A stretch of 64,000 nucleotides of DNA from a virus (taxonomy: Duplodnaviria > Heunggongvirae > Uroviricota > Caudoviricetes), in the IMG/VR virus record IMGVR_UViG_2690316311_000019; one strand, 5' to 3'. Positions 6,195 to 31,236 of the stretch are shown here, one piece after another (within the stretch, counting starts at the first letter, position 1; every line of letters starts with the position of its first letter). The position numbers and the translations under genes were made by a program. A model generated the notes under the pieces. It saw nothing but the letters and a program-made list of their open reading frames with translations, had not been told where the DNA came from and did no database searches.

Positions 6195-9100
6195 TCAACT
6201 CTCGCGTAGTCATTCATCAACGGATCATCAATTGACAGTGGTACCGAGCGCATAACGCCCGGCTGAGGCGTGCTGACCTTTACGACAGTTCCCTGGCCTT
6301 TCGCCGAGTCTTTAGTGTGCTCTTCAATCCTGGCAAGCAATGAGGTCATCTGCGCAAACAGCCGCTTCGTTTCACCATCAAGTGAAACGGTATTATCAGC
6401 CAACTGCATTGTCGGCTTGGCACCGGAACCGCCAAGGTCACTAATAACCTGCCCGTCTATCTGCATACGACCGGTTGGTTGCTGCAAATCGTTGGCGGCA
6501 GTCGTCACCTGGGACGTGGAGGCTGGTTCAGGCGCATTATTTTTCCGCATCCCCGGCGAGTTGCGGAGTTTATCGAATAGTCCATCAATCCCCATTTGTG
6601 CGCCGAGATGGTCAAAGTAACTTGAGTTGTTGGCCACCGGACGCGCCTCTTCAACTGGCATCGGAGTATCAACATACACATTGCCAGCTGCTGTTGCGGT
6701 CCCCTTCCCTCGTGCACGTTCTTCTAGCGTTCCCTGAACGACTTCCCGACGCATCCCCCGGCCATTCATGAATTTGTTGACCAGATCGTTAACGCCAACA
6801 GCATTGCCGATTTTGTCGACCAGACCGCCTTTCTCAAACGGGCTATCACCAGGGGTAAACGCCAGGCCAGTAGACTGATCGATAACGGCGTTATCAGGTA
6901 TCTTTTCGTAAATTGCTGGTGCGCTATGATCTACCTTAGAGCCATAAACGGCACCATTATTGAGCATCTGCTGATACCCTCTGACACGAGTAACATATTC
7001 GCCGGTACCTGCGACTACTCTCCCCTTATCAACATGCCCCATACCAGCATGATAGGCAGCTATTGCACGACCCTGGTCACCGTTATAACGGTTCATCAGC
7101 ATACTTAGGTATCTGGCGGCACCATCAGCTGCTTTTCGTGTATCCATGGCATCAGCATCGCTGAGTCCAAGATCCTCCCTTGTACCTTTAGTGATCTGAA
7201 AAGCCCCAAGGGCAGATGAAAGTTTGTTCCCGTTTTTGTCTACTGGATTTCCAGTTCTCTGGCCTGCACTAGACTCTGCGGATGCAACTGCTGACAGAAT
7301 CCCTTTTTCAAGCCCATACTTACGTTCAAGCTCATCAAAATAATCGGCATTGTCAGAAATCCATTGGTATCCGGCAGCATTTAATTTTGGCAAAGAAACA
7401 TCCTTGCCATTGTTAAATCGACGTTTATCTATCTCATATGCACTTAATGCTTCCTCCTTACCTGTAGCAGACTGGCCCAAGGCAGCATCAATTGTTTGTG
7501 CTGCTTTATTTCCTGTTTCTACGGCATTTGCATTGATAATCTGATTAGCAGTTTCTTTAACTGTTTTATTGCTATCTTTCGCCATATCCAGGGCCGCATA
7601 TATCACGCGGGCAGCAATATTAGTCTGTTTGGCATCGGATTCAGTTTTAGAATCAGATGTCCCCTGGTGGCTATTAACCGGAACTTTTGACTCTGGAGTG
7701 ATTTCTTTCGCATTAGCCTCGCCGATCGGATTGGGTATTTTTGATACAATCATTGCCGCAGGGGTATTTTTAACGGCATCAACCGCTGCATCTAATGCTT
7801 TACCTGGTAAATTTTTAACCCCATCCCAAATATTACCAGCCGCCTCTTTAATGTGTTTCCCTGGGTTCTTAATGAAATCAATTGCACTATCAATTGCATC
7901 ACTGAAAACCTGTTTCAGGTTATCGACAGTAAAGAAGTCTTTGATGGCATCCAGCTTTTCAAGCAGCTTATTAGATGTATCGCTAAACCATGCTGAAACA
8001 GCATCACCAATCTTTGCTGTGTAATCATCGAACTTGGTAGAAATGGTGTCGCCAAGGTTAGAAATATATGTTTCTAAGTTGGTAATCCCACTATCAATGG
8101 CCAGGGCAATACTTTCCGTCGAAAATGATTGCAACATATTGCCGATATCCTCAAATCCAAGTGATTTGAGAACCTCACCAATGGCGCTGCTAATACCAGA
8201 TACCAGTCCCCCCATATCAAGAACATTAGCTAACGTATAAGCGGCTTTTTGCTGGAATGATGGATCTTGTCCTGATTTAAGCCCAAACGCTCGACGTTGC
8301 GCTTCTGTATCATTCCAACCGGTTACCGCACCATAAATACCTCCAGCCACTGTGCCGACTAGGGGAATTGCGCGTAACGCCCCTTTACCAACTGCCTTTA
8401 ATCCAAGTTTACCTGCTGCCCGGGCAGCCAAATCTCCGCCTTCATGAGCGAGAGTCTTCTTGCCACCACCGCGTAGCATTCCTACAAGTTTCTTTGCCCC
8501 CAGAGCGCCAAAAGCGAGTGCTCCAGCTTTTTTCAGCATGCCACGCCCCATTAACAACGACGCGACGCCACCGGCCCCCTTCCCTAACAGGCTAAATAGT
8601 TTGGACAGCAAGCCGCCCTTCTTTTTACCGGTGTTTTTGGCTATCTGATCAAGGGCACGGAGAATCTTGTCATTGCCCTCTTTAATTTCGCTGGTCTGCT
8701 CCTGAAGTTCCTGAACCGTCCGTTTTTGGGTGTTAACCTGAACGACATCGGCACTATTTTGCGATTTACGCCTAAAAAAACCTTTTCTACGGCTGTTATC
8801 GTCATTGCCACGAATCACATCGGCAATAGACTTTCTGGCACCATTAAGCGATCCACCAACTTCTTTTGATATCCCGCCAAGCTCCTTCCCTGCTGCCCAC
8901 AATGGACCAGCAACGGCATAACCTAACGCATCGACGGCACGAGTCTCTGAAGGGTTACCTATGCCTTCAGCTACTTTTGACAGTTTTTTTAATAAACCTG
9001 ATTCAGCATTTAGACGCTCATCATCCTCTTTGCGCCTGGCCTTTTCAGCACGTTCAGCACGGGCATCTTCCGCTGCGGCCTTACTCCCTGACTTTCCAAT

Positions 9101-11755: not shown

Positions 11756-11885
11756 TTAACCGATTCTACGAGTTGTCATTTGTTACCGGTCAGTCTACAC
11801 ATTTCAGATACTACGTTAAAACAACTCAAGTGCTTCAAGTAGCACATCGTCATCAACACCCAATCCGAAGATGCGGAGATAAAAT

Positions 11886-13070
11886 TCAAGCCTTAAGAGG
11901 CTTTGTGTATGTTCGTGTAATCCAACCAGTAATAAACTCATCCCCTGATTTAACCTGCACGTAAAGCCATTGACGATCTTTCTTATCTAAAATAGCAACA
12001 ATTGTGTTTTTGCCAATGCATTCAATCACTTCACTATTTAAAGAAGGACTGACATGTAATCTTACGTTATCACCAGTTATAAACCTAAAACCATTGAGAT
12101 CTTCCCACTTAATTTCTGTGTTTTCTTTAATTAATTTTTGTTTTGATATTGGTGCATCCTCATATAGGGATACAGAATATGATTCTGTCTTGTGTATTTG
12201 CGATAAGATTTGTTCTTTTGCATAATCAGCAATAGCGCCAAGCACCACTTCTGTTAAAAGCCACATAATAATAAACTGAAGCGGGTGAGGGAGCGACTTA
12301 AATGAATCAATGAACGTCGGACTGGATTTATTTAATCCTTTGTCTTGAACATCACTTTCGTTGTGAGATGTTTCAATAGCACCTTCGACATAAGCCTGTG
12401 CAATTGATGAAAGACTTTGCTCCATTATTTGATGTAATGAAGCCTTTTGCGCTAGGGTATATTGTTTTAATGATTCTTTTATTTCATTGTTTAAATCTAT
12501 CTTATGACTTACATTTTGTCGCAATTCATTAAGTATTGCTTGCATGTTATTTAAACCAGCTTGCTTATTAAGCATCTCGAACTGGTTTCGTAACGGCATA
12601 GCAATTTCTGCCTGCTTCCTTAGCATTTGAATGTATTTATTTGCATCATGCGGGGGATAAACCTTGGCCTGTTTCTGTAGAATTTCAAGAAATTCACGAT
12701 GCTTGCTATTTATTCTTCTCAAGCTCGTCATGTTCGCAAGCTGTTTTTTAACAGAATCACTAAGTAACGATTGCAAATTCAATCTTGCTATTTGTTCTTG
12801 AGCTAGCCGCCCTATTCTTAACTGTTCTTGCAAGTTTGCCATATGTTCTCTATACGATGGAATGATTGCGTTTTTTTGCAGTTCTGCCAACTGTCTAACC
12901 AAATTATTAGAAGCATATTCTGATTTTAATAAATCACTTGCCGATGTATATCCTGGCATTTTGATTTTACTTAAATTATCACGCCAGGTAATATTTGAAT
13001 CTCTATTATAGAGATCGCTTACTGAGCCAAGTGCAAGTTTTTTAATATCCTTCACTTTATTCACCGTCAT
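11886..13070 (-). CDS. Membrane-anchored coiled-coil protein with C-terminal SH3b-like domain (AT-rich cassette gene 2)
   Basis: 394-aa ORF; Q/L-rich heptad N-terminal region, one TM segment (LQFIIMWLLTEVVLGAIADY), C-terminal SH3-like stretch GDNVRLHVSPSLNSEVIECIGKNTIVAILDKKDRQWLYVQVK; markedly AT-rich codon usage. Confidence 0.55.
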   Translation of the reverse strand: MTVNKVKDIKKLALGSVSDLYNRDSNITWRDNLSKIKMPGYTSASDLLKSEYASNNLVRQLAELQKNAIIPSYREHMANLQEQLRIGRLAQEQIARLNLQSLLSDSVKKQLANMTSLRRINSKHREFLEILQKQAKVYPPHDANKYIQMLRKQAEIAMPLRNQFEMLNKQAGLNNMQAILNELRQNVSHKIDLNNEIKESLKQYTLAQKASLHQIMEQSLSSIAQAYVEGAIETSHNESDVQDKGLNKSSPTFIDSFKSLPHPLQFIIMWLLTEVVLGAIADYAKEQILSQIHKTESYSVSLYEDAPISKQKLIKENTEIKWEDLNGFRFITGDNVRLHVSPSLNSEVIECIGKNTIVAILDKKDRQWLYVQVKSGDEFITGWITRTYTKPLKA

Positions 13071-13563
13071 CTTGTTTTAAACACCCGTCATTTTTAGCTT
13101 CTGTATAAATACTGGAAATACCATCCAGAGTGAATGATGTGATTCGACTCGAACCGATATATACATCTATTTTTTTTTCATTTGTAGATGACACTGCCTT
13201 CCAAAATGAATACCATCCCCTACGATTAGGAGCAGTGTTTTGCGTGCCAATATTAAAACTATCCGGGCCAACAATTAAAGTAATTACATCTGCTTTACGT
13301 GATATTGTGTCGCGTGTAGAAAAATCGGCATTCTCTTTTCCTCCGCTTACATACAAATTTCTTCCAGCGATATGATCTTCTGAACCTTCCCTTGCTCCAG
13401 CATCACAGGAAAAGTTAATTGTGTAACCATCGTCATTGGTTGCAGAGATTTCTCTCCACCCTTGCTCACCTCCTACCGTCCAAACGGTAGAACCTGCCAT
13501 TGCTGATAATGGCAGAAAAGAGAACATTAATAAAAAGCTATACAATGACTTATACAATTTCAT
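13057..13563 (-). CDS. Secreted protein with signal peptide (AT-rich cassette gene 1)
   Basis: 168-aa ORF, N-terminal MKLYKSLYSFLLMFSFLPLSAMA signal peptide, overlaps downstream gene by 14 nt; AT-rich. Confidence 0.55.
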   Translation of the reverse strand: MKLYKSLYSFLLMFSFLPLSAMAGSTVWTVGGEQGWREISATNDDGYTINFSCDAGAREGSEDHIAGRNLYVSGGKENADFSTRDTISRKADVITLIVGPDSFNIGTQNTAPNRRGWYSFWKAVSSTNEKKIDVYIGSSRITSFTLDGISSIYTEAKNDGCLKQDDGE

Positions 13564-13651
13564 ATTTTTATCCTTTTGTTTTTAGATATTATAGGCATAG
13601 TCCATATTGTTAGATCCACTATGCCCAGAGAATTTAATATTATTTATTAAA

Positions 13652-14143
13652 TTATGGGGCTACACCCGGCCCCCTGGCTCGTTCTTCAAGCGTACCCTGT
13701 ACGTTTTGATGGCGCATTCCTGGGGCATTTCTTATTGAGTCAATGCCATTTCTTCCAACATCTTCTTTATTAACGGCATTGCTCGCCACCAGCACACCCC
13801 AGCTAGGGATAGCAAAATCAGGAGCGGTTTCGCATGCCTTTACCATATAATCGAAAGTGCTTCGATTGATCTCGTTTGCGTCGGGATTTAATAGGCGAGA
13901 ATATTGATATTTAGCATTTTCGTTGGTTGCGACTTTATATAGTTCTTGCTGCACCATCGCTTCAGAAAGTTTAAGACGTTTCATATCTGACAGTAACTTC
14001 TTGCGCATGGATTCGTCTTGACTGACAGCAAAGCCGTAAACGTGCCCAAGGTATTTCGTATAATCGGTACAAATCTCCTTCACGCTTGATGCTGCATTAA
14101 CAGTCCCAGCCATAAATAATAACGGTAGTAATAGTTTTCTCAT
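13652..14143 (-). CDS. Secreted protein carrying a Sit-like C-terminal motif (possible superimmunity-type protein)
   Basis: Signal peptide MRKLLLPLLFMAGTVNA; C-terminus GMRHQNVQGTLEERARG matches Sit segment GMRREVVQGTLEERARG; start at 14143 preferred (GGTGAGG RBS). Confidence 0.5.
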   Translation of the reverse strand: MRKLLLPLLFMAGTVNAASSVKEICTDYTKYLGHVYGFAVSQDESMRKKLLSDMKRLKLSEAMVQQELYKVATNENAKYQYSRLLNPDANEINRSTFDYMVKACETAPDFAIPSWGVLVASNAVNKEDVGRNGIDSIRNAPGMRHQNVQGTLEERARGPGVAP

Positions 14144-17672: not shown

Positions 17673-17722
17673 TAGATTGCTCTAATCTGGAGTCACCTGG
17701 CGTTTTCAGTTTGAGGTCGGAG

Positions 17723-17968
17723 ATGCAATCTGATTTTTTACAGTTAGCGATCGCTTTTGCAGGATATGTTTGTATTGGCTTCTGTGTATACATGATCAGC
17801 CGAAAAATGCTTGTCGATATCGACCGCAAAGAACAAGCAGAGGAGATCTTAGTATGGATTTTCTTTGGCGCGGTCTGGCCATTAGGGATCATGTTTGCTG
17901 CAACATTTCTTCTGATGTGGATATTCACCCTTCCAGGTGATTTCTATAGAAAAAAAGCCAGACATTGA
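17723..17968 (+). CDS. Small membrane protein
   Basis: About 81 aa with two hydrophobic segments; GAGG RBS before ATG at 17723. Confidence 0.4.
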   Translation: MQSDFLQLAIAFAGYVCIGFCVYMISRKMLVDIDRKEQAEEILVWIFFGAVWPLGIMFAATFLLMWIFTLPGDFYRKKARH

Positions 17969-18091
17969 TACAATCGTTGCGGGTGCTTGAGGCTATCTGC
18001 TTCAGGCATTACCCGAAAAGCAGATAGAAGAAAGCCCCAGATAACATTACGCGTCCTGCAAGACGCTTAACATTAATCTGAGGCCACATCT

Positions 18092-18298
18092 ATGCTTAGC
18101 ATACGTAGATTAGCCTCTTACCGACCAAAAGGTCAAGGAGAAGCAGGCTATGAAGCAGCAAAAAGCGATGTTAATCGCTCTGATCGTCATCTGTTTAACC
18201 GTCATTGTGACGGCACTGGTAACGAGGAAAGACCTCTGCGAGGTACGAATCCGAACCGGCCAGACGGAGGTCACTGTCTTCACAGCCTACGAATCTGA
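18092..18298 (+). CDS. mok-like overlapping reading frame of the hok-type locus
   Basis: 68-aa ORF in a different frame overlapping almost the whole hok-like gene, as in hok/mok loci. Confidence 0.35.
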   Translation: MLSIRRLASYRPKGQGEAGYEAAKSDVNRSDRHLFNRHCDGTGNEERPLRGTNPNRPDGGHCLHSLRI

Positions 18299-18305
18299 AA
18301 GGTAA
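18150..18305 (+). CDS. hok: Hok/Gef-family type I toxin
   Basis: 51-aa MKQQKAMLIALIVICLTVIVTALVTRKDLCEVRIRTGQTEVTVFTAYESER matches Hok signature (TRKSLCEIRYRDG..EVAAFMAYES); GGAG RBS. Confidence 0.8.
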   Translation: MKQQKAMLIALIVICLTVIVTALVTRKDLCEVRIRTGQTEVTVFTAYESER

Positions 18306-18312
18306 GAGACCT

Positions 18313-18332
18313 GGCGGGGAGAGATCCCCGCC
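18313..18332 (+). other. Stem-loop at the 3' end of the hok-like mRNA
   Basis: GGCGGGG-AGAGAT-CCCCGCC hairpin directly after the hok stop. Confidence 0.35.
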
Positions 18333-18378
18333 ACTCTTCGTGTGTCAGGTATCCTCAATGCACCCTTTCCTCTCCAAA

Positions 18379-18400
18379 TAAAAAAGCTCCCGAAGGAGCT
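18379..18400 (-). terminator. Rho-independent terminator after the leftward virion operon
   Basis: AGCTCC-CGAA-GGAGCT hairpin followed by a T-run on the minus strand, just downstream of the gene ending at 18422. Confidence 0.5.
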
Positions 18401-21974: not shown

Positions 21975-22034
21975 AACTTTCCCTGTTATGCGCCCCGCAC
22001 GGGGGCGCTATGTTAAACGGAGAACTTCCCCTGA

Positions 22035-23741
22035 TTACTCAGAGTCACCGGCATCAATCGTGTCGCCGCTTATGAAGTTAAGCCCGCCTTTTTTGGCCAT
22101 TGTCAGCGTTACACGAGTGAAGTAATCAGCGCCGTTGCGTGGGTGCATATCGTTGATAGCCGAACCCCACAGTGTGGTACGGTTGACCAGCGCCGGAGTG
22201 GTCGGATGCTGGAACGGGATAGCCGGGACAGCATCACCAGTCACGAAGCCTGCTTTACCCGGATTTTCATCACGGACGTAGCACAGCACATCCATCGAGC
22301 TGAACTGAATGTTCTCTGTCGTTAAGTTCTTACAAATACCAGCAGGTACTTCGTACACTTTCACGTTACCGAACAGGGTACCGATGTAGTGAACATACGG
22401 AGTCTGGATATAGTCTTCGGCTGGCTGGAAGAAATCCTTCGGCAACTGTTTGAAGAAAGATGCTGCATCAGCACCAGCAAACATCCCCATCGCACCAGAA
22501 GATTTAACGCGCTCAATAATGTCGCGATATACAGTCTGGAATTTGCCACGAATGATGGTTGCCCATACATTAAAGGACTGGTTAACCGGCAGAGCGATGT
22601 CAAAGGTGTCGGTCGCAAGAGTACGCCAGATCATGATGCGAAGACGCAGCATATCCTGTTCATGAGACAGGTATTCCTTCAGGGTGCGGAACTGTAGGGA
22701 ACCCAGGTCCAGACCAAATTCACGCTGTGCTTCATACGCCGCCTGTACCGTGTGCTCAGCCGCGATAACGAACTGACTTGGGAACAGGGTGTATTTCTTC
22801 ATTTCGTGGTTGATCAGCGGGATCAGCTCAGGTGCGGCTTCAATATTGATTTCCGTCTCAATTGCGATCTCAGTGCCTTTATCCGGCGCTTTGGAGAACG
22901 ACAGGGCAATCTGACCAATGTTGTAGTTCAGAGAGCAGGTAACAGTGATTTGCTCACCAGCAGCATTAGTAAACGAGTGAAGTAGGCTGCCGGAACCGTT
23001 ATCAACAACAGACTTAATACGGTTAACGTAGATGTTAGTGCGACCTTTTCGGATTGGTACATTCTGGCCTTCGAAGTCTTCCATCTTGAAGGTTGCGGTT
23101 TTGCTGGTGCCATCGGAGCTTGCCACCAGCACATAGCGGCGACGTAACTGGCTGTACACACCAACGGATTGCATGTCCAGAACATCACCAGCAGCATAAG
23201 AACCAAAAGAGGAACCTGCCACGTTAAAGACTTCATAGATGTCGGACTGGTCACGCGTAACCGGAATGAAGGTACACGCATCAGCGGTAGCTGCCCCCAA
23301 CTGAACAGGCAGGATCATCGCGAGGAATAAAGGCAGACGCATAACACCGTCAGAAACGCTCATCATCTCTGCTGCGACGGATTCCAGCATCGCTTTATTA
23401 GTGGCATCCATGCTATTGCGGGTGGACTCAATCAGGCAGTTTTCCAGCGTCTGGTGGCAGGAGGCCAGAATTTCCGGACGCGGCATAGATTTATGTGCTG
23501 CGGCGTAGTCAGCCAGTGCACTTGCCCACGCTGTAGCGATTTGAGCGGTGGCATTATCAGAGATACCCGCAAAAACCGGGTCTTTACGTGCAGCTTCAAG
23601 GATAGATGCGGCACGCGCGGCATCATCTTTAATGAATTGGTTATCAGTACCGAACTGCGCAGTGCTTGCCCAGCCAAGCACAGCTTTAGAGCGTTTTGCG
23701 ATATCTGCAATACGATTCTGGTATTCGCGTAAGTTACTCAA
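22035..23741 (-). CDS. Large virion protein, candidate major head protein
   Basis: ORF 22035..23762; probable TTG start at 23741 after AGGAAG RBS; assignment by size and position adjacent to par. Confidence 0.4.
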   Translation of the reverse strand: MSNLREYQNRIADIAKRSKAVLGWASTAQFGTDNQFIKDDAARAASILEAARKDPVFAGISDNATAQIATAWASALADYAAAHKSMPRPEILASCHQTLENCLIESTRNSMDATNKAMLESVAAEMMSVSDGVMRLPLFLAMILPVQLGAATADACTFIPVTRDQSDIYEVFNVAGSSFGSYAAGDVLDMQSVGVYSQLRRRYVLVASSDGTSKTATFKMEDFEGQNVPIRKGRTNIYVNRIKSVVDNGSGSLLHSFTNAAGEQITVTCSLNYNIGQIALSFSKAPDKGTEIAIETEINIEAAPELIPLINHEMKKYTLFPSQFVIAAEHTVQAAYEAQREFGLDLGSLQFRTLKEYLSHEQDMLRLRIMIWRTLATDTFDIALPVNQSFNVWATIIRGKFQTVYRDIIERVKSSGAMGMFAGADAASFFKQLPKDFFQPAEDYIQTPYVHYIGTLFGNVKVYEVPAGICKNLTTENIQFSSMDVLCYVRDENPGKAGFVTGDAVPAIPFQHPTTPALVNRTTLWGSAINDMHPRNGADYFTRVTLTMAKKGGLNFISGDTIDAGDSE

Positions 23742-23874
23742 TTTACTCTTCCTTAAACACAAGGCACTTGTGTGAATCCCTTTTCGGAAGAGATTTTATT
23801 GAAAGTCACTTGTTGACTTTCTCGTGACAAGCAATTTTTTTATTTTTTCGGGAGTAGGGGAGGAAGGTAAAATC

Positions 23875-23968
23875 CAAGGTGAAATCGTGGCGATTTCACC
23901 TTGAAATTTTAGATGGATTTACTTTAAAAACAGTAGGTTAATAGTGAAATTTGAATGGCGAAAGTTTA
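23875..23968. other. parS: P1-type parS centromere
   Basis: Immediately downstream of parB: heptamer ATTTCAC/GTGAAAT boxes and hexamer TCGCCA/TGGCGA boxes (palindrome GGTGAAATCGTGGCGATTTCACC at 23878-23900; second box pair at 23945-23961) separated by an AT-rich putative IHF site. Confidence 0.6.
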
Positions 23969-24967
23969 AGGCTTCGGCTTTTTATCGAGGCTCTTTCTAA
24001 GGATATGCCCAATCATCCTGTCGAGTTCTTCCTGTAGCTCTTTTGAAAGTCGATTAAACTCATAAGAAAATGCACGGCCTTTCACGCGCTTCCTTGCAAA
24101 GCGATCCTTGTCCTCAAATTTCCATAATTCAGTAACTACGGACTTATCTTTAGAACCTTTATCCGTGAGTAGTGAGGCTTCCTTTGTTATCAAGCGCAGG
24201 ATTTTATTTTTAACTTCATCTTCGGCCATTTCTTCAATGGATAAGATGTCGTTTATTTCCGGGGATATGTTTTGAATAAGCTGATCAAACTCTAAATTCT
24301 TGTTCCCCATTTCGTCGCCAACAGCACAAAGCGTTTTGTAGTCCGAAAAGGTTAATTCCGACTGCACAGGGAAAAGGGCGACTAATTCTTCCGGAGCACT
24401 CGCTGCCTGGAGAGCACGCGTGACCTTAGCCTGAGACAGCCCTTCTTTGGCTGCAATATCCTTCTGACTCATCCCATCATTTTTCATTCGCATCAAACGC
24501 AGACCTATTTCTCGAATGCTGTGCTGCAATGCTGTCTGAACGTCTTTCGCTAAATTTTGCGCTTCCTGAACGCTGATCTCCTGGTCCGTGACTAAAACCC
24601 GCAACCCTACGTTCTCTAAGATGGCAGAAGCTCGACGCCGGGAACCATCCAAAATTTCAATTTTCCCTGTACCCCGTCTAACACCTATTGCAGGGTAAAA
24701 TTGCTGATGCTTAATAGTGCTTCGGATACTTTTTAATGATTTTGGCGTAAGAGATGCCTGGTCACGCCCGTTGTTATGCTGATCAACAAAGGTATCGCTT
24801 TCTACCTGGTTCGGAGGTATTACCTCTTCAATAAATGTGGCCTGGCGACCAGTTGATAACTTGAATACCTGCTCGACTCGATCGCCAGAGGCTGAAGAAC
24901 TATCAAATCCGCTTAATATTGAAGGATTAAGGGTTCGCCCAATTGTTGGTCTGTTTTTCTTTGACAT
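23966..24967 (-). CDS. parB: Partition protein ParB
   Basis: 333-aa ORF directly downstream of parA; ParB-like HTH region; P1 ParB-like length. Confidence 0.85.
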   Translation of the reverse strand: MSKKNRPTIGRTLNPSILSGFDSSSASGDRVEQVFKLSTGRQATFIEEVIPPNQVESDTFVDQHNNGRDQASLTPKSLKSIRSTIKHQQFYPAIGVRRGTGKIEILDGSRRRASAILENVGLRVLVTDQEISVQEAQNLAKDVQTALQHSIREIGLRLMRMKNDGMSQKDIAAKEGLSQAKVTRALQAASAPEELVALFPVQSELTFSDYKTLCAVGDEMGNKNLEFDQLIQNISPEINDILSIEEMAEDEVKNKILRLITKEASLLTDKGSKDKSVVTELWKFEDKDRFARKRVKGRAFSYEFNRLSKELQEELDRMIGHILRKSLDKKPKP

Positions 24968-24983
24968 GGGGGTTTCTTACTCC

Positions 24984-26180
24984 TCAGTTAGATCTGATAA
25001 ATTCAATACGGTCAAAAACTGCTTTAGCAAAATCTTCCGCGGCAATTCGCGCGTTCTTCAATGCATCAGCACTACCAACATACGTTGCCGGGTTAGCTGA
25101 AATAACAGTGTCAAAAGACTCGCCGCAACGTTCAAAACCGTCAAGGCGAGGGAGGACGACATCGAGCATATCCCCACCGAACACTTCTTTAGCCAGGCTA
25201 TGGCAATACTTATGATCTGCCTTGTTACTCAACTTGGACATAAAACCAATGTTAGTCGCAAGCTGGCACTCGCAGCCTTCATCCGAAATGAGTTTCACCA
25301 ACTCAGGAAGGCGGGCAACGTATTTAAGCGATGAGTGGAAATCGACAGTTGCTGGCGGCAGAGGTGTAAACAGTATATTGGCCGAGGCCAAAGCATTTTT
25401 CAGGAAGGCGTCAAGGTGAGGACCACTATCAACGAGGATAAAGTCATAATCGCTCTTCAGCTTATCAATCACATTTTCTTTCAGGACAGCATGGATGTTC
25501 TGACCCGGTAGATGCTCATTGCACAGCTCTCTCCAATCGGATGCAATAAAGGCATCGTCAATCGACGCAGGCATAACGTCAACCCCAGGTACAACAGAAG
25601 GAACAATAAACTCCTCTAACAGCTCTTCACGGCTTACATTCTGCAACATAGCCTGTGCAGATGTTGCGTTTACGATACCAATAGAGTGTTTATGGCTTAA
25701 AAACATCGTTGCTGAAGATTGCGGATCAAGGTCAATAACCAGAATCCTTAAATCTTCCATCAGAAGATGAGGGTGAGCACGCATTGCATGCGCCAGAGAA
25801 ACCGTCGATACAGTTTTTGACACACCGCCTTTAAGATTGGAGATGAAAATCACATACGCTTCGCTGTAGCGATCCCGGTATTTTGGCACTCCGCGATGTT
25901 CATATATGTCAATGATGTTCTGAATTGACATCGCATATTTCATTGAAGAGCCAGCAGGGCGTTTATCGAAAACATAACCCTTTTCTTCCATTTCACTTAC
26001 GGCATAGTCAACGTTCGCTCGAGTCAGTAGAGGCAATTTTGCCAGTGCCGCTTTCGCATAGACCTGGTAAAACTCGTTCGCGTGTAGCTCATCCTTTTGC
26101 AACTGTACTTGTTCAGTCAGAACATTGAGCATTCTGTTTGCTCTTTGAGCAACCTTGTGAAGCTGGCTGGAATCACTCAT
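24984..26180 (-). CDS. parA: Partition ATPase ParA (type Ia, with N-terminal regulatory domain)
   Basis: 398-aa ORF; deviant Walker A NLKGGVSKT, long N-terminal extension. Confidence 0.9.
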   Translation of the reverse strand: MSDSSQLHKVAQRANRMLNVLTEQVQLQKDELHANEFYQVYAKAALAKLPLLTRANVDYAVSEMEEKGYVFDKRPAGSSMKYAMSIQNIIDIYEHRGVPKYRDRYSEAYVIFISNLKGGVSKTVSTVSLAHAMRAHPHLLMEDLRILVIDLDPQSSATMFLSHKHSIGIVNATSAQAMLQNVSREELLEEFIVPSVVPGVDVMPASIDDAFIASDWRELCNEHLPGQNIHAVLKENVIDKLKSDYDFILVDSGPHLDAFLKNALASANILFTPLPPATVDFHSSLKYVARLPELVKLISDEGCECQLATNIGFMSKLSNKADHKYCHSLAKEVFGGDMLDVVLPRLDGFERCGESFDTVISANPATYVGSADALKNARIAAEDFAKAVFDRIEFIRSN

Positions 26181-26320
26181 CGAAAGTCATCCTTTATGCT
26201 GTATTTTTGAATTTAATTAAAAATGCTGCATAAAATAATAATGTATGCGTAGATGCTTGTACATGGCATTCTCTGCATGTTTTGTTCATTTTGCACGATT
26301 GAGAGTTACAAGAAAGGCAC

Positions 26321-26341
26321 AAAAAAGCCCCGTTCAGGGGC
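26321..26341 (-). terminator. Rho-independent terminator between upstream insert and the par promoter region
   Basis: GCCCC-TGAAC-GGGGC hairpin followed by TTTTTT on the minus strand, just after the stop of ORF 26349..26753. Confidence 0.5.
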
Positions 26342-26348
26342 ATCAGTG

Positions 26349-26753
26349 TTATTTGCTAAGAGCAGCGAATAATCGTTCGAAATCGATAGTATCTATAGCA
26401 CGCGTAAGCGCCGGAAGTTCAGCCTCAAAGTACCCGTGTCGATCGTAAAAGAAGGGACCGAAGAGCGAGGCATGTTGGATTCTACTTCGCCCCAGCCCGG
26501 ACACACAGTTAAGCCCATTACCGGCTAAAAGGCTAAAAAACTTCTCTGGATTATCGTGGTAAAGCTGAGAATCAATGGTGGCGGTTAACTCTTCCATAGG
26601 GAAGCACACCCGCCCTGTCTCCCAGGGATATTTAGTCCGAAGCATAAACATTGCTTTCAGCAATTCACATTGAGCGCGGATCGCGTCCGGTTCATAGCCA
26701 GATATGGAGACATAAGCCACGTCCCTCATTCCTGCGTCATCTTTGAAAGTCAC
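26349..26753 (-). CDS. Hypothetical protein (gene 2 of the incA-par insert)
   Basis: 134-aa ORF, no recognised domain. Confidence 0.45.
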   Translation of the reverse strand: MTFKDDAGMRDVAYVSISGYEPDAIRAQCELLKAMFMLRTKYPWETGRVCFPMEELTATIDSQLYHDNPEKFFSLLAGNGLNCVSGLGRSRIQHASLFGPFFYDRHGYFEAELPALTRAIDTIDFERLFAALSK

Positions 26754-26822
26754 GATAGAAGTAACATCCAGTTCTTTTTCGAAAGAGCGAGCAGCATCTA
26801 CTGGACGCTGAAGTAAATCATT

Positions 26823-27158
26823 CTACTTAATGCGCTCGAGAATCCCTCCCCACATATCATTTAGATATTCGATATGAGCCAAAACCTTATCAAGACACTC
26901 TCGTGTAAACCATTCAGTATGCCCGCCACCGGCGCTTTTCTCCCACGGCGCATTCCAGGGGAAAAAGGTTGCGTGTAAAGCCCGCTCAAGATTAACCATT
27001 GCCAAACGCGTACCACGATAGACCCGTGAAAGCGCAAAATCGGGACTCACTTGTAGCCCTTTAAACCGTGCCAATGGACCACATGAAATGCCGATTTTAA
27101 AAGTATCTCCGTTCTCCGGCACCAGAACGTAGAGGTAGTGTTGTTTCTCTTCTTGCAT
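26823..27158 (-). CDS. T5orf172/GIY-YIG-like domain protein (gene 1 of the incA-par insert)
   Basis: 111-aa ORF; YLYVLV...KIGIS...R...LERALHATF...TEWF resembles the T5orf172 (GIY-YIG-like) motif pattern. Confidence 0.5.
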   Translation of the reverse strand: MQEEKQHYLYVLVPENGDTFKIGISCGPLARFKGLQVSPDFALSRVYRGTRLAMVNLERALHATFFPWNAPWEKSAGGGHTEWFTRECLDKVLAHIEYLNDMWGGILERIK

Positions 27159-27184
27159 ATCAATACCACTGCTTGATGAGAACC

Positions 27185-27445
27185 GCGCAAATGTTGACTA
27201 TGCGCGAAAGTTAATGTGAATAGTTGACTATGCGCGATGTGACTACAGTCAAAAGTTGACTGTAGTCGATTTAACTCCACCAAAGATCGACTATGTAAGA
27301 TATTGTCGGGAGAAACGTTGACTATACGCGATGAAATGACCCTAAAAGCCATCTCAATAGCGACTTGCAGAATATTGACGCCAGCAAAAATCCACCAGCG
27401 TCAACGAATGTCGCCTATAGTCAACTTCTCGCTATCGCATATAGT
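27185..27445. repeat. incA-like iteron array downstream of repA
   Basis: About nine copies of GTTGACTATRCGCGA-type iterons in both orientations. Confidence 0.7.
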
Positions 27446-27450
27446 CAATA

Positions 27451-28335
27451 TTATGGATTGCGCTTATGGATCTGAAAGCCGATTTTCCTGCCGTTTTTTA
27501 TCTCTGAAAATTTAAGATATTCAATAGCTTCCAAATCTTTCATGGCTTTTCTGATAACGCTATTTTGCACGCTAACGGATGATTTGAGATTAAGCCTTGC
27601 TCTAAGGCGCTCAATGCTGACAGGTGCCGGGTTGGCGGGTAGAGCCTCAAAGAATGTATACAGTACCTTGGCCGTCTCTTTGCGCCCGAGCTTATCCAGC
27701 ATCTTCAGCTTCAGGATTCGCTTATAGTCAACATAGTAAAGTTCAGATAGCTGTTTCTGCGGCTGGATCTCGATAACATCAAGCTCGGTATTCAGGCTGC
27801 TATATGCCAACAAGTTGACGTTAATGTTATTGAGATGACCTTTTGCCGCCGGGAAGCGGAATTTGACAACTGTCTGCTGAATGCGTGTCAGAGAGTCATC
27901 AATACTTTTACGGAACGCCTTTGAAAGGCGCTTACGTGGATAGCCGCATCGATCGGCAAACTCGGAGAATGGCAGGGTGATTATGCCGTCATCATCAGGT
28001 GCGTAGTCAAACAACGCGGAGGTTATGCCCACCCACACCTTAAAATCAGTATCCATATCCAGGCGTGGACCATGAATTTCAATTCCCTCATAGCCTTCCT
28101 GCTCAACAATTTTGAGGCTTGATAGTTCTTCGGTTGCGTTCGTTGTGTTTGTAGTAACTGACGATCCGCGACGTAGTGCCACATTGGTAGATTTTAAGGT
28201 TGGCACAAACACACCTAAGCGCAACAAAGCAATGGGTTGTATAGTGCTATTGTTATTGGGTTTCAGGCTGTGGATTTCTCCTGTATTTCCTGCAACTTCT
28301 TCAACGCTAAGGAAGCCTTTATTTTCTTCCAGCAT
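27451..28335 (-). CDS. repA: Iteron-binding replication initiator RepA (P1 RepA-like, divergent)
   Basis: RepA-like motifs (QPIALLRLGVFVP, GPRLDMDTDFKVWVGI); flanked by iterons on both sides; start MLEENKG at 28335 preferred because the upstream extension overlaps the iterons. Confidence 0.8.
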   Translation of the reverse strand: MLEENKGFLSVEEVAGNTGEIHSLKPNNNSTIQPIALLRLGVFVPTLKSTNVALRRGSSVTTNTTNATEELSSLKIVEQEGYEGIEIHGPRLDMDTDFKVWVGITSALFDYAPDDDGIITLPFSEFADRCGYPRKRLSKAFRKSIDDSLTRIQQTVVKFRFPAAKGHLNNINVNLLAYSSLNTELDVIEIQPQKQLSELYYVDYKRILKLKMLDKLGRKETAKVLYTFFEALPANPAPVSIERLRARLNLKSSVSVQNSVIRKAMKDLEAIEYLKFSEIKNGRKIGFQIHKRNP

Positions 28336-28393
28336 CGTGGTTTCTCCATATGTGGCGCGGCCTGGCGTCATCTGGATTGCAGTTATCAACAAC

Positions 28394-28515
28394 TGTGAAT
28401 AGTCAGGCTCTAAAATCGCGTACAGTCAATGTTTCTGTCGCATATAGTCAACAATAAATCGCGTGCAGTCAACAATAAATCGTGCACAGTCAACATAAAA
28501 TCGCGTATAGTCAAT
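28394..28515. repeat. incC-like iteron array in the replication origin
   Basis: Five to six direct repeats of AATCGCGTRCAGTCAAC upstream of repA. Confidence 0.7.
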
Positions 28516-28517
28516 GT

Positions 28518-28626
28518 TGATCCCATTTCAGGCCAGAAATGGCGCGGCTTACAGCGATCCGGGATCTTCTTTGGATCTTCCTGGGTTCTCTTTAGGATCT
28601 GTTTATTGGATCTATGCTGTGGATAA
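28518..28626. other. oriR-like origin elements: GATC cluster and DnaA box
   Basis: GATC sites at 28518, 28555, 28563, 28574, 28596 and 28609; perfect DnaA box TTATCCACA (reverse) at 28618-28626. Confidence 0.65.
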
Positions 28627-28668
28627 GTTGAATAAACCGGCCAACATAGCCGGTTGGAAGGAAGGGTA

Positions 28669-29061
28669 TTATTCTACGCTTTCGATAAGAAGACCATGTT
28701 CATAACATTTAAGCTCATCGCCTTCGTACAGGAATTGGTATCCAATACCACCATTTTCATGGACATTAGGGAATAACTCATAACTCACTGAAGAGCAAAT
28801 CACACCAATGCAGCGATCAACGCCTTCTCGTTCTTCAGTGCTGAAAAAATCCTCTTCGGTAAGAACATGAGTACATTGCTCATCAGCATAGGTCGGAAAT
28901 ACATGCTCGATGCAATCCGGGTGTTTTAAACCAAGCTGATCGGCAAGCTCGAAAGCATGACGGTATTGTTCAGATCCTGGCTTGCCAACAGTGATGTGCT
29001 CAATTTTGTAGATTGAAGTCGCTTTGTTGATAGTTTGCTTTACTGTTACTTTATCAGACAT
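28669..29061 (-). CDS. Hypothetical protein
   Basis: 130-aa ORF. Confidence 0.45.
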   Translation of the reverse strand: MSDKVTVKQTINKATSIYKIEHITVGKPGSEQYRHAFELADQLGLKHPDCIEHVFPTYADEQCTHVLTEEDFFSTEEREGVDRCIGVICSSVSYELFPNVHENGGIGYQFLYEGDELKCYEHGLLIESVE

Positions 29062-29072
29062 AAAAATCCCTT

Positions 29073-29324
29073 TTAGTTACCGCTGATAGCGCGGTTGTAA
29101 TCATTAACGTTGCGATTCTTCCTGTTAATCCCCATCAGCATCGTTTCTGTATCGAGGATATACGCTGGCAGATCATCAAAATATTCACTGCTAAACTCTG
29201 GCATCCTGCACATAAACGCACTTTTGGGGGCAGGGTGGTTAACCTTTGTCGGCGTCGGCGTTAAATTCGCTGATCGACTCCCGGAGCAACCGCTGAGTGT
29301 CAGCAGGAATGCGCTGGCGAACAT
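29073..29324 (-). CDS. Small lipoprotein
   Basis: Lipobox LTLSGC; start uncertain (ORF extends to 29405). Confidence 0.45.
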   Translation of the reverse strand: MFASAFLLTLSGCSGSRSANLTPTPTKVNHPAPKSAFMCRMPEFSSEYFDDLPAYILDTETMLMGINRKNRNVNDYNRAISGN

Positions 29325-29688
29325 TACCCGCCGCAACCAGTTGTTTCTGAACTTCAGCTTTTCGTTCCATTTGCCTGTCAGCATATTTGGCTTGTTCTGA
29401 TTCATTTTTCACTTCCTGGCTGTGAAAATGTTGCTCTGCTTTGTTCATCGTCTCAATGGTCTGGTTAAGATCCATTATTGACTTATCACGTTCCTTAACA
29501 GCCTGATCAAGACTGCCAATTTTCTCCATGGCTTGCTTTAGCTGATGACGTTCCCATGCAAACCCAGCACCAACAAGTGCGCAAATCAGAACAAGAACAC
29601 CAGTAGCAGCAAGTTTCTCCTTCAAAGACAAAGCTGTTTTTAACGTAGAAAAGAATGACATGTCTTCCTCCTGAAGAAAAATTATCAA
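29239..29688 (-). CDS. Membrane-anchored coiled-coil protein
   Basis: 149-aa ORF with N-terminal TM segment; overlaps the lipoprotein ORF in another frame. Confidence 0.4.
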   Translation of the reverse strand: MIIFLQEEDMSFFSTLKTALSLKEKLAATGVLVLICALVGAGFAWERHQLKQAMEKIGSLDQAVKERDKSIMDLNQTIETMNKAEQHFHSQEVKNESEQAKYADRQMERKAEVQKQLVAAGNVRQRIPADTQRLLRESISEFNADADKG

Positions 29689-29700
29689 TGAAGTCCTTTG

Positions 29701-30489
29701 TTACCGTGCCGCTTTGTTTAATTCATCAAGAACAGAATCAGGAACCAAAGCGGCGACTGCGCTGGCTGTGCTGGCCTTATTTGCTGATGCTTCCGCAAGC
29801 GCGGTACCGATAGCATGGTTATAAGCAGTTATGGCTACGTTGGCGCTTTCATTCGCTCGTTCATACTGCTGTTGTAACGCAGTTGTGGGTGCTGTTGTCT
29901 GGTTGAAAACAACCCCAAACTGTTCAGTTGCTACTTTCAGAGATTCAATTTGCTCTTCTGTTAGTGCTGGTGGGGGAGTGGCAGTGCCGCCGCCTGAACC
30001 AGAGCCTGACGAGCTTTCTGAGCCAGTGTTAAGGGCCTGGTTAATCTCCCCCATTGCAGCGACTAAACTTGATGTATTAAGCGCGTTAACAGCGTCCTCA
30101 AGCGATTTAGTAATATTCACATCACCAATGGCAATAGAGATCGGCAGTTCTGAAACTTCTCGCTCATTAGCACGGCAGTAAACATCCCAACCAATATCGA
30201 GTTGAAGCAGCATTGACAGATCTGCATAACCAGCCAACAGGTCCGCGTGCTTAGTTGCCAGTTCTCCAATGTTCGTTAAGCCGGTTGTGGTTGTTCTGAT
30301 CGTTGAAACATAGCTGGTAATAGTGTCGGGATAGACAATTGTATCCAGAATTAATCCGGTCAATTCTTCTGCAAGCAGTTTTGCTGTGTTAGCACTGTTT
30401 CGTGCCGATGTTATGGCACCAGGTGTTTTCATCCCACCGGCGGCGGCCAATTTTTTATATGCGGATAACTGGTAGTCTTTTTCCAGCAT
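29701..30489 (-). CDS. Hypothetical protein
   Basis: ATG at 30489 with GGAGA RBS; Ser/Gly-rich linker. Confidence 0.45.
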   Translation of the reverse strand: MLEKDYQLSAYKKLAAAGGMKTPGAITSARNSANTAKLLAEELTGLILDTIVYPDTITSYVSTIRTTTTGLTNIGELATKHADLLAGYADLSMLLQLDIGWDVYCRANEREVSELPISIAIGDVNITKSLEDAVNALNTSSLVAAMGEINQALNTGSESSSGSGSGGGTATPPPALTEEQIESLKVATEQFGVVFNQTTAPTTALQQQYERANESANVAITAYNHAIGTALAEASANKASTASAVAALVPDSVLDELNKAAR

Positions 30490-30497
30490 GATATCTC

Positions 30498-30782
30498 CTA
30501 ACTTACCTGAACCAGGCCGTCTCCGGACGCTACGGTAGATCCGCATGAAACAGGGTCACCAACGCATACGATCCCTTTACCATTGACGGTAAACCATGCC
30601 CTGGTTGATATAGCTTGCCCACCGTGCGTACTGTTTCCATCGGTATGCTGTGCATATTGCTTACCATCAACTAACACTTCGACTCCGTTGACTTTAAGTA
30701 GTGGTTCACTCTCTACAGGAGGCCTGGATGGGAATCCTCCGTGCCCCGAACAAATGCTGTCTTTTGTTGCAATGCTTGCCAC
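30498..30782 (-). CDS. PAAR-like domain protein
   Basis: 94-aa ORF with GHGG, HGG and VNGKGIVCVGDPVSCG motifs resembling PAAR spike-tip proteins; GTG start. Confidence 0.45.
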   Translation of the reverse strand: MASIATKDSICSGHGGFPSRPPVESEPLLKVNGVEVLVDGKQYAQHTDGNSTHGGQAISTRAWFTVNGKGIVCVGDPVSCGSTVASGDGLVQVS

Positions 30783-30863
30783 GCCATCACCAATTATTTG
30801 CTCTGATTTTCGTTATTTTAACTTAGGTTATTTGTGGTCTGTATGGCGTTTACTTATCGCAAA

Positions 30864-30880
30864 ATTGCTCTAATAAATAT
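30864..30880 (+). promoter_or_regulatory. C1-type operator-like site upstream of the rdgC-dmt operon
   Basis: ATTGCTCTAATAAATAT. Confidence 0.55.
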
Positions 30881-30951
30881 TGTTTTTTATGTCGTATTTT
30901 CGGTACCATTCAGCCATCGCCCTTCAATGGGCATTTGTTTGGAGTCGTCAG

Positions 30952-31236
30952 ATGCAGATGGAGCTAATAAGCCGCAAAGAGTTCGATAGCCGTGTAACCA
31001 GCGGTGAACTCGACAACTTGCAGGCTATCAAGGTGAAAGAAGGCTTTTGCCTCATTGGGAATCAGAGCGGAATAAATCGCGTTTTTATGCTTCGCCGTAC
31101 GGATTTGAAGCCATTTGTCTGGAAGAACGAAATTGGTCCCAGCTCATACGCTCAAACGAGGGGGTGCCACAACCTGGCCTTTTTCTACAAAGACGAGCTT
31201 TCTGTGGTTGATATTCAAGGGTTACAACATGTTTAA
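30952..31236 (+). CDS. Hypothetical protein
   Basis: ATG at 30952 after GGAG; ORF-track TTG start at 30880 lies inside the operator. Confidence 0.45.

Follow-up and report, generated by a model that had tools for sequence, protein, structure and literature searches.

Between the replication gene repA and the partition operon of a P1-like phage-plasmid, the 64,000-nucleotide stretch analysed here (the window, from the virus record IMGVR_UViG_2690316311_000019, to which all coordinates refer) carries on its minus strand a GIY-YIG-type gene of 269 codons (26349-27158) in which an amber codon interrupts the frame. This gene stands last in a replicon cassette that P1-like phage-plasmids appear to exchange as a unit, and when all of the evidence is considered we think it on balance probable that it is a dispensable gene for a targeted nuclease, resembling either the homing endonucleases or the nuclease Odn, and that the copy in the window is inactive. 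We hold with moderate confidence that the intact protein would be a DNA-targeted nuclease serving the spread of the cassette or its competition with others, and not replication, because the catalytic motifs are conserved, the putative targeting domain evolves fast, the gene lies at the edge of the cassette and it appears to be dispensable.

Results

A single gene interrupted by an amber codon

The first-pass annotation had described two genes at this place, and two co-oriented open reading frames (ORFs) are indeed found on the minus strand, one of 111 amino acids (26823-27158) and one of 134 amino acids (26349-26753) that begins at an internal GTG at 26753. They share one frame, with 69 in-frame bases between them, and both match PHROG 2876, a family of 269 positions, the 111-residue ORF at 1-111 and the 134-residue ORF at 136-269. 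In RCS47, where the gene is intact, RefSeq annotates a single 810-bp coding sequence as 'GIY-YIG nuclease family protein', and the window differs from it at 10 of the 810 bases; one of these differences, at 26824, changes TCG to TAG at codon 112 (26823-26825, minus strand), a C-to-A change on the coding strand. Given the common frame, this single change and a family match that covers both halves, the comparison indicates that the two ORFs are the halves of a single 269-codon gene divided by one nonsense mutation, so that the two genes of the first-pass annotation become one, split by a lineage-specific amber codon.

What lies upstream of the stop codon (26823-27158, minus strand) is a complete T5orf172/GIY-YIG-like nuclease domain; the sequence 3′ of it (26349-26822, minus strand) encodes a linker and a predicted C-terminal winged-helix domain, of which the 134-residue ORF is a part. 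Translation from the native start in the window gives the 111-residue nuclease domain without the C-terminal domain, and as the amber codon takes the putative targeting domain off the nuclease domain, the locus has most probably become a pseudogene recently, in the lineage of the plasmid pO111_2. The sequence of pO111_2 is 100% identical to the window here, and its annotation has two coding sequences for the 269-codon gene. Annotation of the gene varies elsewhere: it is unannotated in several GenBank records of P1-like elements, and the homologue in phage phi456 (OR339795.1, 39530-41227) is labelled 'terminase small subunit', which looks like a mis-annotation.

Predicted domains of the intact protein

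The assignment of the N-terminal part to T5orf172/GIY-YIG-like proteins, made at first from the sequence, agrees with Pfam, in which the 111-residue ORF matches T5orf172 (PF10544) with an E-value of 6e-7 and a score of 30.3 bits, the cutoff being 20; matches to the same family were found for all four deep homologues. An AlphaFold2 model built from an alignment of four lineages has a mean predicted local distance difference test score (pLDDT) of 73, and supersedes an earlier model from a two-sequence alignment whose pLDDT of 52 was too poor for use. It consists of an N-terminal alpha/beta domain (residues 7-102), which has the alpha/beta fold of GIY-YIG nucleases in the predicted structure, a disordered linker (113-127, pLDDT below 50), in which the amber site falls, and a C-terminal domain (about 128-269). 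Fold matches in BFVD are to T5orf172, CapR-homology and homing-endonuclease proteins. In an alignment with the GIY-YIG protein 1ywl, the GIY motif corresponds to Y8/Y10, the YIG motif to F20/G23 and the Arg motif to R31, though the match is weak (E-value 0.23). These positions belong to a set of nine residues (Y8, Y10, F20, K21, G23, R31, E58, H62 and E82) that are invariant across four lineages with identities of 25-44%, and all of them other than F20 are also listed as unchanged in 42 of 42 population alleles.

The C-terminal domain is harder to place. Its model has a winged-helix fold, and two independent methods put the WH1 domains of iteron-binding initiators among the best matches, at weak scores. 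The half as a whole has no match in Pfam, NCBIfam, PADLOC or sequence profiles from the PDB, and its one match, PHROG 2876, is the same protein. The remote homology search proposed in the first-pass annotation, which had called the second ORF a protein of unknown function, has therefore given a family for the N-terminal half, T5orf172, and for the C-terminal half no sequence family and only the weak WH1 resemblance. [quoted passage not shown] According to the model, the intact protein is an N-terminal T5orf172 nuclease domain joined by a flexible linker to a C-terminal winged-helix DNA-binding domain.

The gene as the last element of an exchanged replicon cassette

In ascending coordinates the minus-strand order in the window is gene 23, parB, parA (24984-26180), the 269-codon gene and repA (27451-28335), followed by upfA and the P1 backbone. 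Comparison with P1 by blastn shows a tract of 2,249 bp (26283-28531) without DNA similarity to P1, apart from one match of 59 bp at 76% identity within repA (28013-28071). The tract stands in place of 1,491 bp of P1 that contain the incC iterons, repA and incA, and it is flanked by sequence that matches P1 at 99.3% on the par side (22001-26282) and at 94.7% on the upfA side (28532-31000). Within it are the origin iterons, a p0111-type repA, the control iterons, the 269-codon gene and a terminator. The gene had been seen as accessory cargo wedged into the maintenance region. Relative to P1 it is indeed an extra coding sequence, dispensable as far as can be judged and not of a housekeeping kind; the alignment nevertheless shows no insert, since the incC-repA-incA block is replaced as a unit and the gene is the terminal part of the replacement. 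A foreign base composition was also rejected for it, its GC content of 0.475 being the average of the window.

The par-side junction lies 19 bp upstream of the -35 element of the P1-type par promoter Ppar (26235-26263, minus strand), which a promoter scan places in P1-homologous DNA outside the cassette and which maps to the annotated P1 Ppar -10/-35 elements. Just inside the junction, some 55 bp upstream of the Ppar -35, is the hairpin with a T-run that the first-pass annotation had recognised as a terminator (26317-26341, minus strand; GCCCC-TGAAC-GGGGC). The hairpin (26341-26327) with its tail folds at -11.9 kcal/mol, with a z-score of -2.2 against shuffled sequences. A comparable hairpin and T-run follow the homologue in another lineage, L009, and the terminator is part of the exchange unit in at least two lineages.

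On the other side of the gene lie six control (incA-like) iterons downstream of repA (27189-27449; repeat families D2 and D4), four of them at 27189-27331 and two in opposite orientation at 27409-27449. The last iteron, which had been put at about 27185, is the copy at 27189-27207, and it ends about 30 bp before the ATG of the 269-codon gene. These had been taken for the incA iterons of P1. Their consensus, TCGCGYATAGTCAAC, is unlike the P1 19-mer, and the initiator that they accompany, a Rep3-family protein of p0111 type with 294 residues (27451-28335, minus strand; Pfam Rep3_C and Rep3_N; 'RepB family plasmid replication initiator' in RefSeq), is 43% identical to P1 RepA, so that neither P1-type 19-bp iterons nor a P1-type RepA is found in the window. 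Upstream of repA are five origin iterons at 21-22 bp spacing (28411-28518; repeat families D1 and D5), which are specific to the cassette.

The origin-side junction falls inside oriR itself. The DnaA box (TTATCCACA) and the GATC repeats (28556-28625, minus strand), identified by sequence and by the P1 annotation of the DnaA box and Dam sites, belong to the P1 backbone outside the cassette; over 28532-28633, where the P1 box and its five GATC repeats lie, identity to P1 is still about 95%, and the adjacent five iterons are swapped. The part of the origin that serves host factors and the part specific to the initiator would therefore seem to be separate modules. The P1 IncY replicon has the layout of the window, in which the DnaA box with its GATC repeats is followed by five origin iterons, repA, the control iterons and Ppar-parA-parB; it differs from the window in the iteron sequence, in RepA and in the spacer of about 190 bp between incA and Ppar, which, in agreement with the first-pass annotation, holds no gene. 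A degraded copy of the gene in this spacer was looked for by tblastn and rejected, as no remnant was matched.

A second exchange is found when two other gene-bearing P1-like elements, L004 and L007, are compared. Their backbone proteins are 98-100% identical and their flanking DNA 96-99%, against 41% for RepA and 29% for the T5orf172 protein, and the two places where homology is lost are those already seen between the window and P1, including the breakpoint within oriR. These alignments indicate that the cassette has been exchanged as a unit at least twice with the same boundaries, and as the breaks coincide, the unit of exchange would be the origin iterons, rep, the control iterons and the gene. 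In the two independent exchanges the gene and terminator end 40-110 bp from the breakpoint, that is, at the edge of the exchanged tract.

Homologues and the conserved slot

Of 5,426 complete E. coli genomes, 411 carry the gene, and a tblastn search of PLSDB found copies of at least 90% identity in about 400 P1-like plasmids, the one further match being to the N-terminal domain in an unrelated Cupriavidus plasmid. The first-pass annotation had named as evidence against its cargo reading any P1-family genomes with the same locus in a known housekeeping role; hundreds of P1-family genomes do carry this gene in this position, with no housekeeping role known for it. In a collection of 5.8 billion proteins the protein forms five clusters, and a HMMER search of 1.84 billion representatives yielded only three further full-length lineages, P0004 (44% identity), P0009 (27%) and P0011 (about 28%); the N-terminal domain alone is shared by some 150 other proteins in the same search. 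All three lineages occur in P1-like contigs and in a common slot, which runs rep, control iterons, gene, Ppar-parA-parB, gene 23, and in all four lineages the ATG is roughly 15-30 bp past the last iteron. GTDB genomes added one p0111-type copy, and IMG/VR and metagenomes yielded the p0111 clade only. No context outside P1-like elements was found for the full-length gene in PLSDB, GTDB genomes, IMG/VR or metagenomes. The P0009 type was not found in PLSDB, nor the P0011 type in INPHARED.

The Salmonella element L007 is the closest to P1 in its replicon, with a RepA 83% identical to that of P1 and P1-type iterons, yet it has the gene where P1 has about 190 bp. P1 (IncY) without the gene and L007 (IncY-like) with it form a pair that differs in presence and absence, their DNA being only 71-76% identical. 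The corresponding locus (L007/L008; Salmonella enterica GCA_007478465, contig AAIBNK010000009.1, 6813-8882) has an IncY-like replicon with a 293-residue homologue between incA and Ppar, and this variant was not found in PLSDB. The relationships of the proteins group the window with L004 and L007 with L009, whereas the Rep of L009 stands a little nearer to those of the window and L004; the mismatch hints, with weak support, at some shuffling within cassettes.

Inactivating alleles

The amber allele was counted through an exact 86-mer containing the TAG. It was present in 11 of 400 PLSDB records, in 27 of the 411 gene-bearing complete E. coli genomes and at 5 of 44 IMG/VR loci; in about 93-97% of relatives the gene is free of this mutation. 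Among the matches listed, the carriers are plasmids identical to pO111_2 in this region, from human stool, cattle and beef isolates. One IMG/VR locus (L041, IMGVR_UViG_2703718869_000013) has the amber codon beside a different repA allele, which begins MPEESK where that of the window begins MLEENK; this combination suggests either recombination inside the cassette or a recurrent amber mutation.

The lesion in the window is not the only one. At least five independent inactivating changes (S112*, Q228*, W68*, a 1-bp indel and a truncation, in which the gene ends after nucleotide 294 with unrelated sequence beyond) are found in otherwise complete plasmids. Q228* is carried by SJ46 (L033) and by a metagenome contig, and the loci with knock-outs other than S112* are L033, L052, L055, L077 and L083. 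The gene is intact at 64 of 78 fetched loci, and about 13% of complete copies are disrupted, about 87% of the sampled copies being intact. Because P1 lacks the gene and at least five independent knock-out alleles persist, we conclude from the genomes compared that it is dispensable. Kept over long times yet dispensable and often lost, it follows a pattern typical of conflict or selfish genes.

Evolutionary rates

Rates were taken from 39 unselected IMG/VR loci. The ratio of nonsynonymous to synonymous polymorphism (pN/pS) is 0.30 for the 269-codon gene, which has 23 distinct proteins, 35 codons with an amino-acid change and 28 with synonymous changes only. The corresponding values are 0.02 for repA (4 distinct proteins, 3 codons with an amino-acid change and 44 synonymous-only) and 0.00 for parA (2 distinct proteins, 1 codon and 68). 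A first estimate of the ratio of nonsynonymous to synonymous substitution (dN/dS), 0.44, was rejected as biased, the alleles having been chosen for protein divergence, and is superseded by the value of 0.30. These polymorphism data indicate a much faster evolution for the gene than for its neighbours. When the window is compared with L004, the RepA proteins are 83% identical and the T5orf172 proteins 44%, with 60% in the N-terminal domain and 32% in the C-terminal one. The divergence of the C-terminal domain does not track the identity of the iterons: the window and L004 have the same iteron consensus and C-terminal domains of 32% identity, compared to 28% for L007 and L009, which have different iterons.

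Expression

A promoter of its own was rejected for the gene, as the minus strand has no sigma-70-like site from repA to its ATG; a terminator was likewise looked for in this interval and not found. Ribosome-binding sites are weak in all four lineages. Together, the missing promoter and terminator and the weak ribosome-binding sites suggest that expression is low, transcription probably reading on from repA through the iterons bound by RepA. Ppar would be insulated by the terminator at 26341-26317.

Relation to published p0111-type elements

The cassette is the known p0111-type replicon of P1-like phage-plasmids. Positions 25900-27600 are 100% identical to pO111_2 and 98.9-99.4% identical to RCS47, SJ46 and JL22; most members of this group lack the amber codon, and the window carries the allele of the pO111_2 lineage. 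That a repA′ and an unknown gene replace the IncY repA has already been noted (PMC9603915), and the RepA of SJ46 has been given as 42% identical to that of P1 (PMC5241659). In the papers on P1-like elements retrieved for this analysis we found no mention of GIY-YIG and no discussion of the nature of the gene. What we add is the conserved slot in four lineages, the position at the cassette edge, the domain make-up, the fast evolution and the repeated knock-outs.

Other differences from P1 in the window

The sim (superimmunity) region of P1 is replaced at 11784-14004 by non-P1 DNA with an ORF of 394 residues (11886-13070) and one of 168 residues (13057-13563) whose N-terminus resembles a signal peptide; this corresponds to the published 'highly variable region' of P1-like elements. 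Two further segments have no megablast match to P1, at 17686-18380 (the rlfA/rlfB region, about 0.7 kb compared to 1.8 kb in P1) and at 6898-7507 (within the sit gene). The annotation of mlp/ppfA (29073-29405 / 29239-29688; L001, L003) varies, with a 110-residue mlp ORF here and in P1 and a coding sequence of 132-141 bp in RCS47 and pO111_2.

Discussion

A probable targeted nuclease at the edge of the cassette

In the mechanism that we propose, P1-like phage-plasmids would swap the cassette as a unit between two fixed points, one after the DnaA-box/GATC part of oriR and the other upstream of Ppar, and the gene would be needed neither for replication nor for partition. The winged-helix domain of the intact protein would bring the nuclease to a particular DNA site of a competing or cognate element, and not of the host, and cutting would bring a selfish or competitive benefit, in that a rival P1-type plasmid is eliminated or its replicon region converted. 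Several observations weigh against this explanation. Neither the neighbouring Rep nor any other family resembles the C-terminal domain in sequence or profile. PADLOC (PADLOC-DB v2) gives no family at an E-value of 1 or below for either half. Our picture of expression is drawn from absent signals only. A p0111-type cassette lacking the gene at high nucleotide identity was not seen among p0111-type elements, as a classical homing polymorphism would require. Finally, simple relaxation of constraint in a decaying gene could also account for the pN/pS of 0.30, most of the amino-acid variants being singletons.

A narrower form of the proposal, which we put forward tentatively and consider rather doubtful, is that the intact protein is a replicon-linked nuclease of origin-directed or homing type, whose initiator-like winged helix directs cutting of the replication/partition region in rival P1-type plasmids that lack the cassette, leading to their elimination or to conversion by repair from the resident copy. 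Replacement driven by a nuclease in this way would explain the exchange of whole cassettes at fixed boundaries, the commonness of the p0111-type cassette, and fast diversification and decay once the cassette is fixed.

The precedent is Odn, in which a T5orf172 nuclease with an initiator-derived DNA-binding domain cuts the iteron origin of a rival element (PMC8263062). Odn (ICP1 gp88) and the Odn-like T5orf172/RepA_N proteins of the coliphages Inny, Muut and Mt1B1_P17 likewise fuse a T5orf172 nuclease to a separate DNA-binding domain (PMC8263062; PMC10448857), are linked to iteron-type replicons exchanged as modules, and are accessory and often inactivated in natural isolates; more than half of ICP1 isolates, for instance, have a frameshift in the Odn-like gp5 (PMC10448857). 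The initiator-like (WH1-like) fold of the C-terminal domain is a further resemblance, at weak scores. The differences are as clear. The DNA-binding domain of Odn is plainly similar in sequence to the RepA_N domain of its target, whereas for the predicted DNA-binding domain described here no similarity to a Rep was found in sequence or profile, nor sequence homology to the origin-binding domain of an initiator. The two proteins also differ in domain order: the catalytic glutamate of Odn is residue 180 (E180A; PMC8263062), so that its nuclease domain lies further in, whereas here the nuclease is N-terminal. Odn is also a gene of a lytic phage directed against a satellite, while the present gene belongs to a phage-plasmid and lies within its replicon cassette, beside its own rep.

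A similar picture emerges from the free-standing T5orf172 genes of ICP1 and other phages, which are homing endonucleases found at boundaries of genetic exchange (PMC10448857). They share with the present gene the nuclease family, an intergenic slot beside maintenance genes, a place at the edge of a tract exchanged between similar genomes, and a fast-evolving DNA-binding part. They differ in that 87% of the phage ones surveyed use CapR, DUF723 or DUF4397 zinc-finger domains (PMC10448857), and here the predicted domain is a winged helix, with none of those motifs. Free-standing GIY-YIG endonucleases are also found in T4, where they are of the Seg type.

Alternative explanations

Much of the same evidence bears on the idea that the protein is a domesticated regulator, one that no longer cuts and whose winged helix binds the control iterons, Ppar or oriR to tune replication, copy number or par expression. 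The model would be CapR of PLE, a domesticated repressor related to the homing endonucleases (PMC10448857), which is likewise a relative of T5orf172 proteins that a mobile element may have recruited, placed where it could regulate. The location of the gene, always between the control iterons, which it follows directly, and Ppar, its inheritance within the rep cassette and the resemblance of its C-terminal fold to the WH1 of iteron-binding initiators would all suit such a role. We nevertheless regard it as unlikely. The nuclease motifs, fully conserved here, which sets the protein apart from CapR, are kept strictly in lineages of 25-44% identity and in the 42 alleles, though a pure DNA binder would not need them, and the C-terminal domains of the window and L004 have diverged about as far as those of L007 and L009 despite shared iterons and an 83% identical RepA. 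P1 and plasmids with at least five knock-out alleles are moreover maintained without the gene, and its pN/pS is 15 times that of repA.

The lesions and rates could instead mark a functionless relic, a passenger in decay that may, for example, once have been a homing endonuclease and became fixed in the cassette, with the amber allele as one step of its erosion. At least five independent inactivating lesions with some 13% of complete copies disrupted, a pN/pS of 0.30 with many singleton replacements, and weak ribosome-binding sites are what such decay would leave. Set against these are an ORF that stays open with all of its motif residues across four lineages down to 25-44% identity, the large majority of sampled copies that are intact and a pN/pS well below 1, and we judge this explanation quite unlikely.

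Least likely of those considered is the defence role that had been raised at first, in which the nuclease, carried as cargo, attacks incoming DNA or triggers abortive infection to protect the lysogen: GIY-YIG/T5orf172 domains do occur in nucleases of mobile-element conflicts (PMC8263062; PMC10448857), fast evolution and frequent loss are seen in many defence genes, and phage-plasmids are described as often carrying defence genes (PMC13221032), but neither half matches a PADLOC model, the gene is single and small and has neither sensor nor partner beside it, its occurrence is limited to one slot of P1-like replicon cassettes and does not extend over defence islands, and its GC content is that of the backbone.

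Implications

With a nonsense pseudogene in the window the finding is a modest one locally, and for the pO111_2 lineage it corrects the annotation to one nuclease gene in place of two small ORFs. For the family it means more, since the gene appears as an integral and fast-evolving part of the exchangeable replicon module of P1-like phage-plasmids, which are widespread carriers of resistance genes and whose p0111 and IncY replicons are used for typing. If the intact protein does target rival replicons or drive their conversion, it would take part in competition and module exchange among phage-plasmids, in parallel to the arms race of Odn and PLE, and plasmid incompatibility and the replacement of replicons would then have a mechanism driven by a nuclease.

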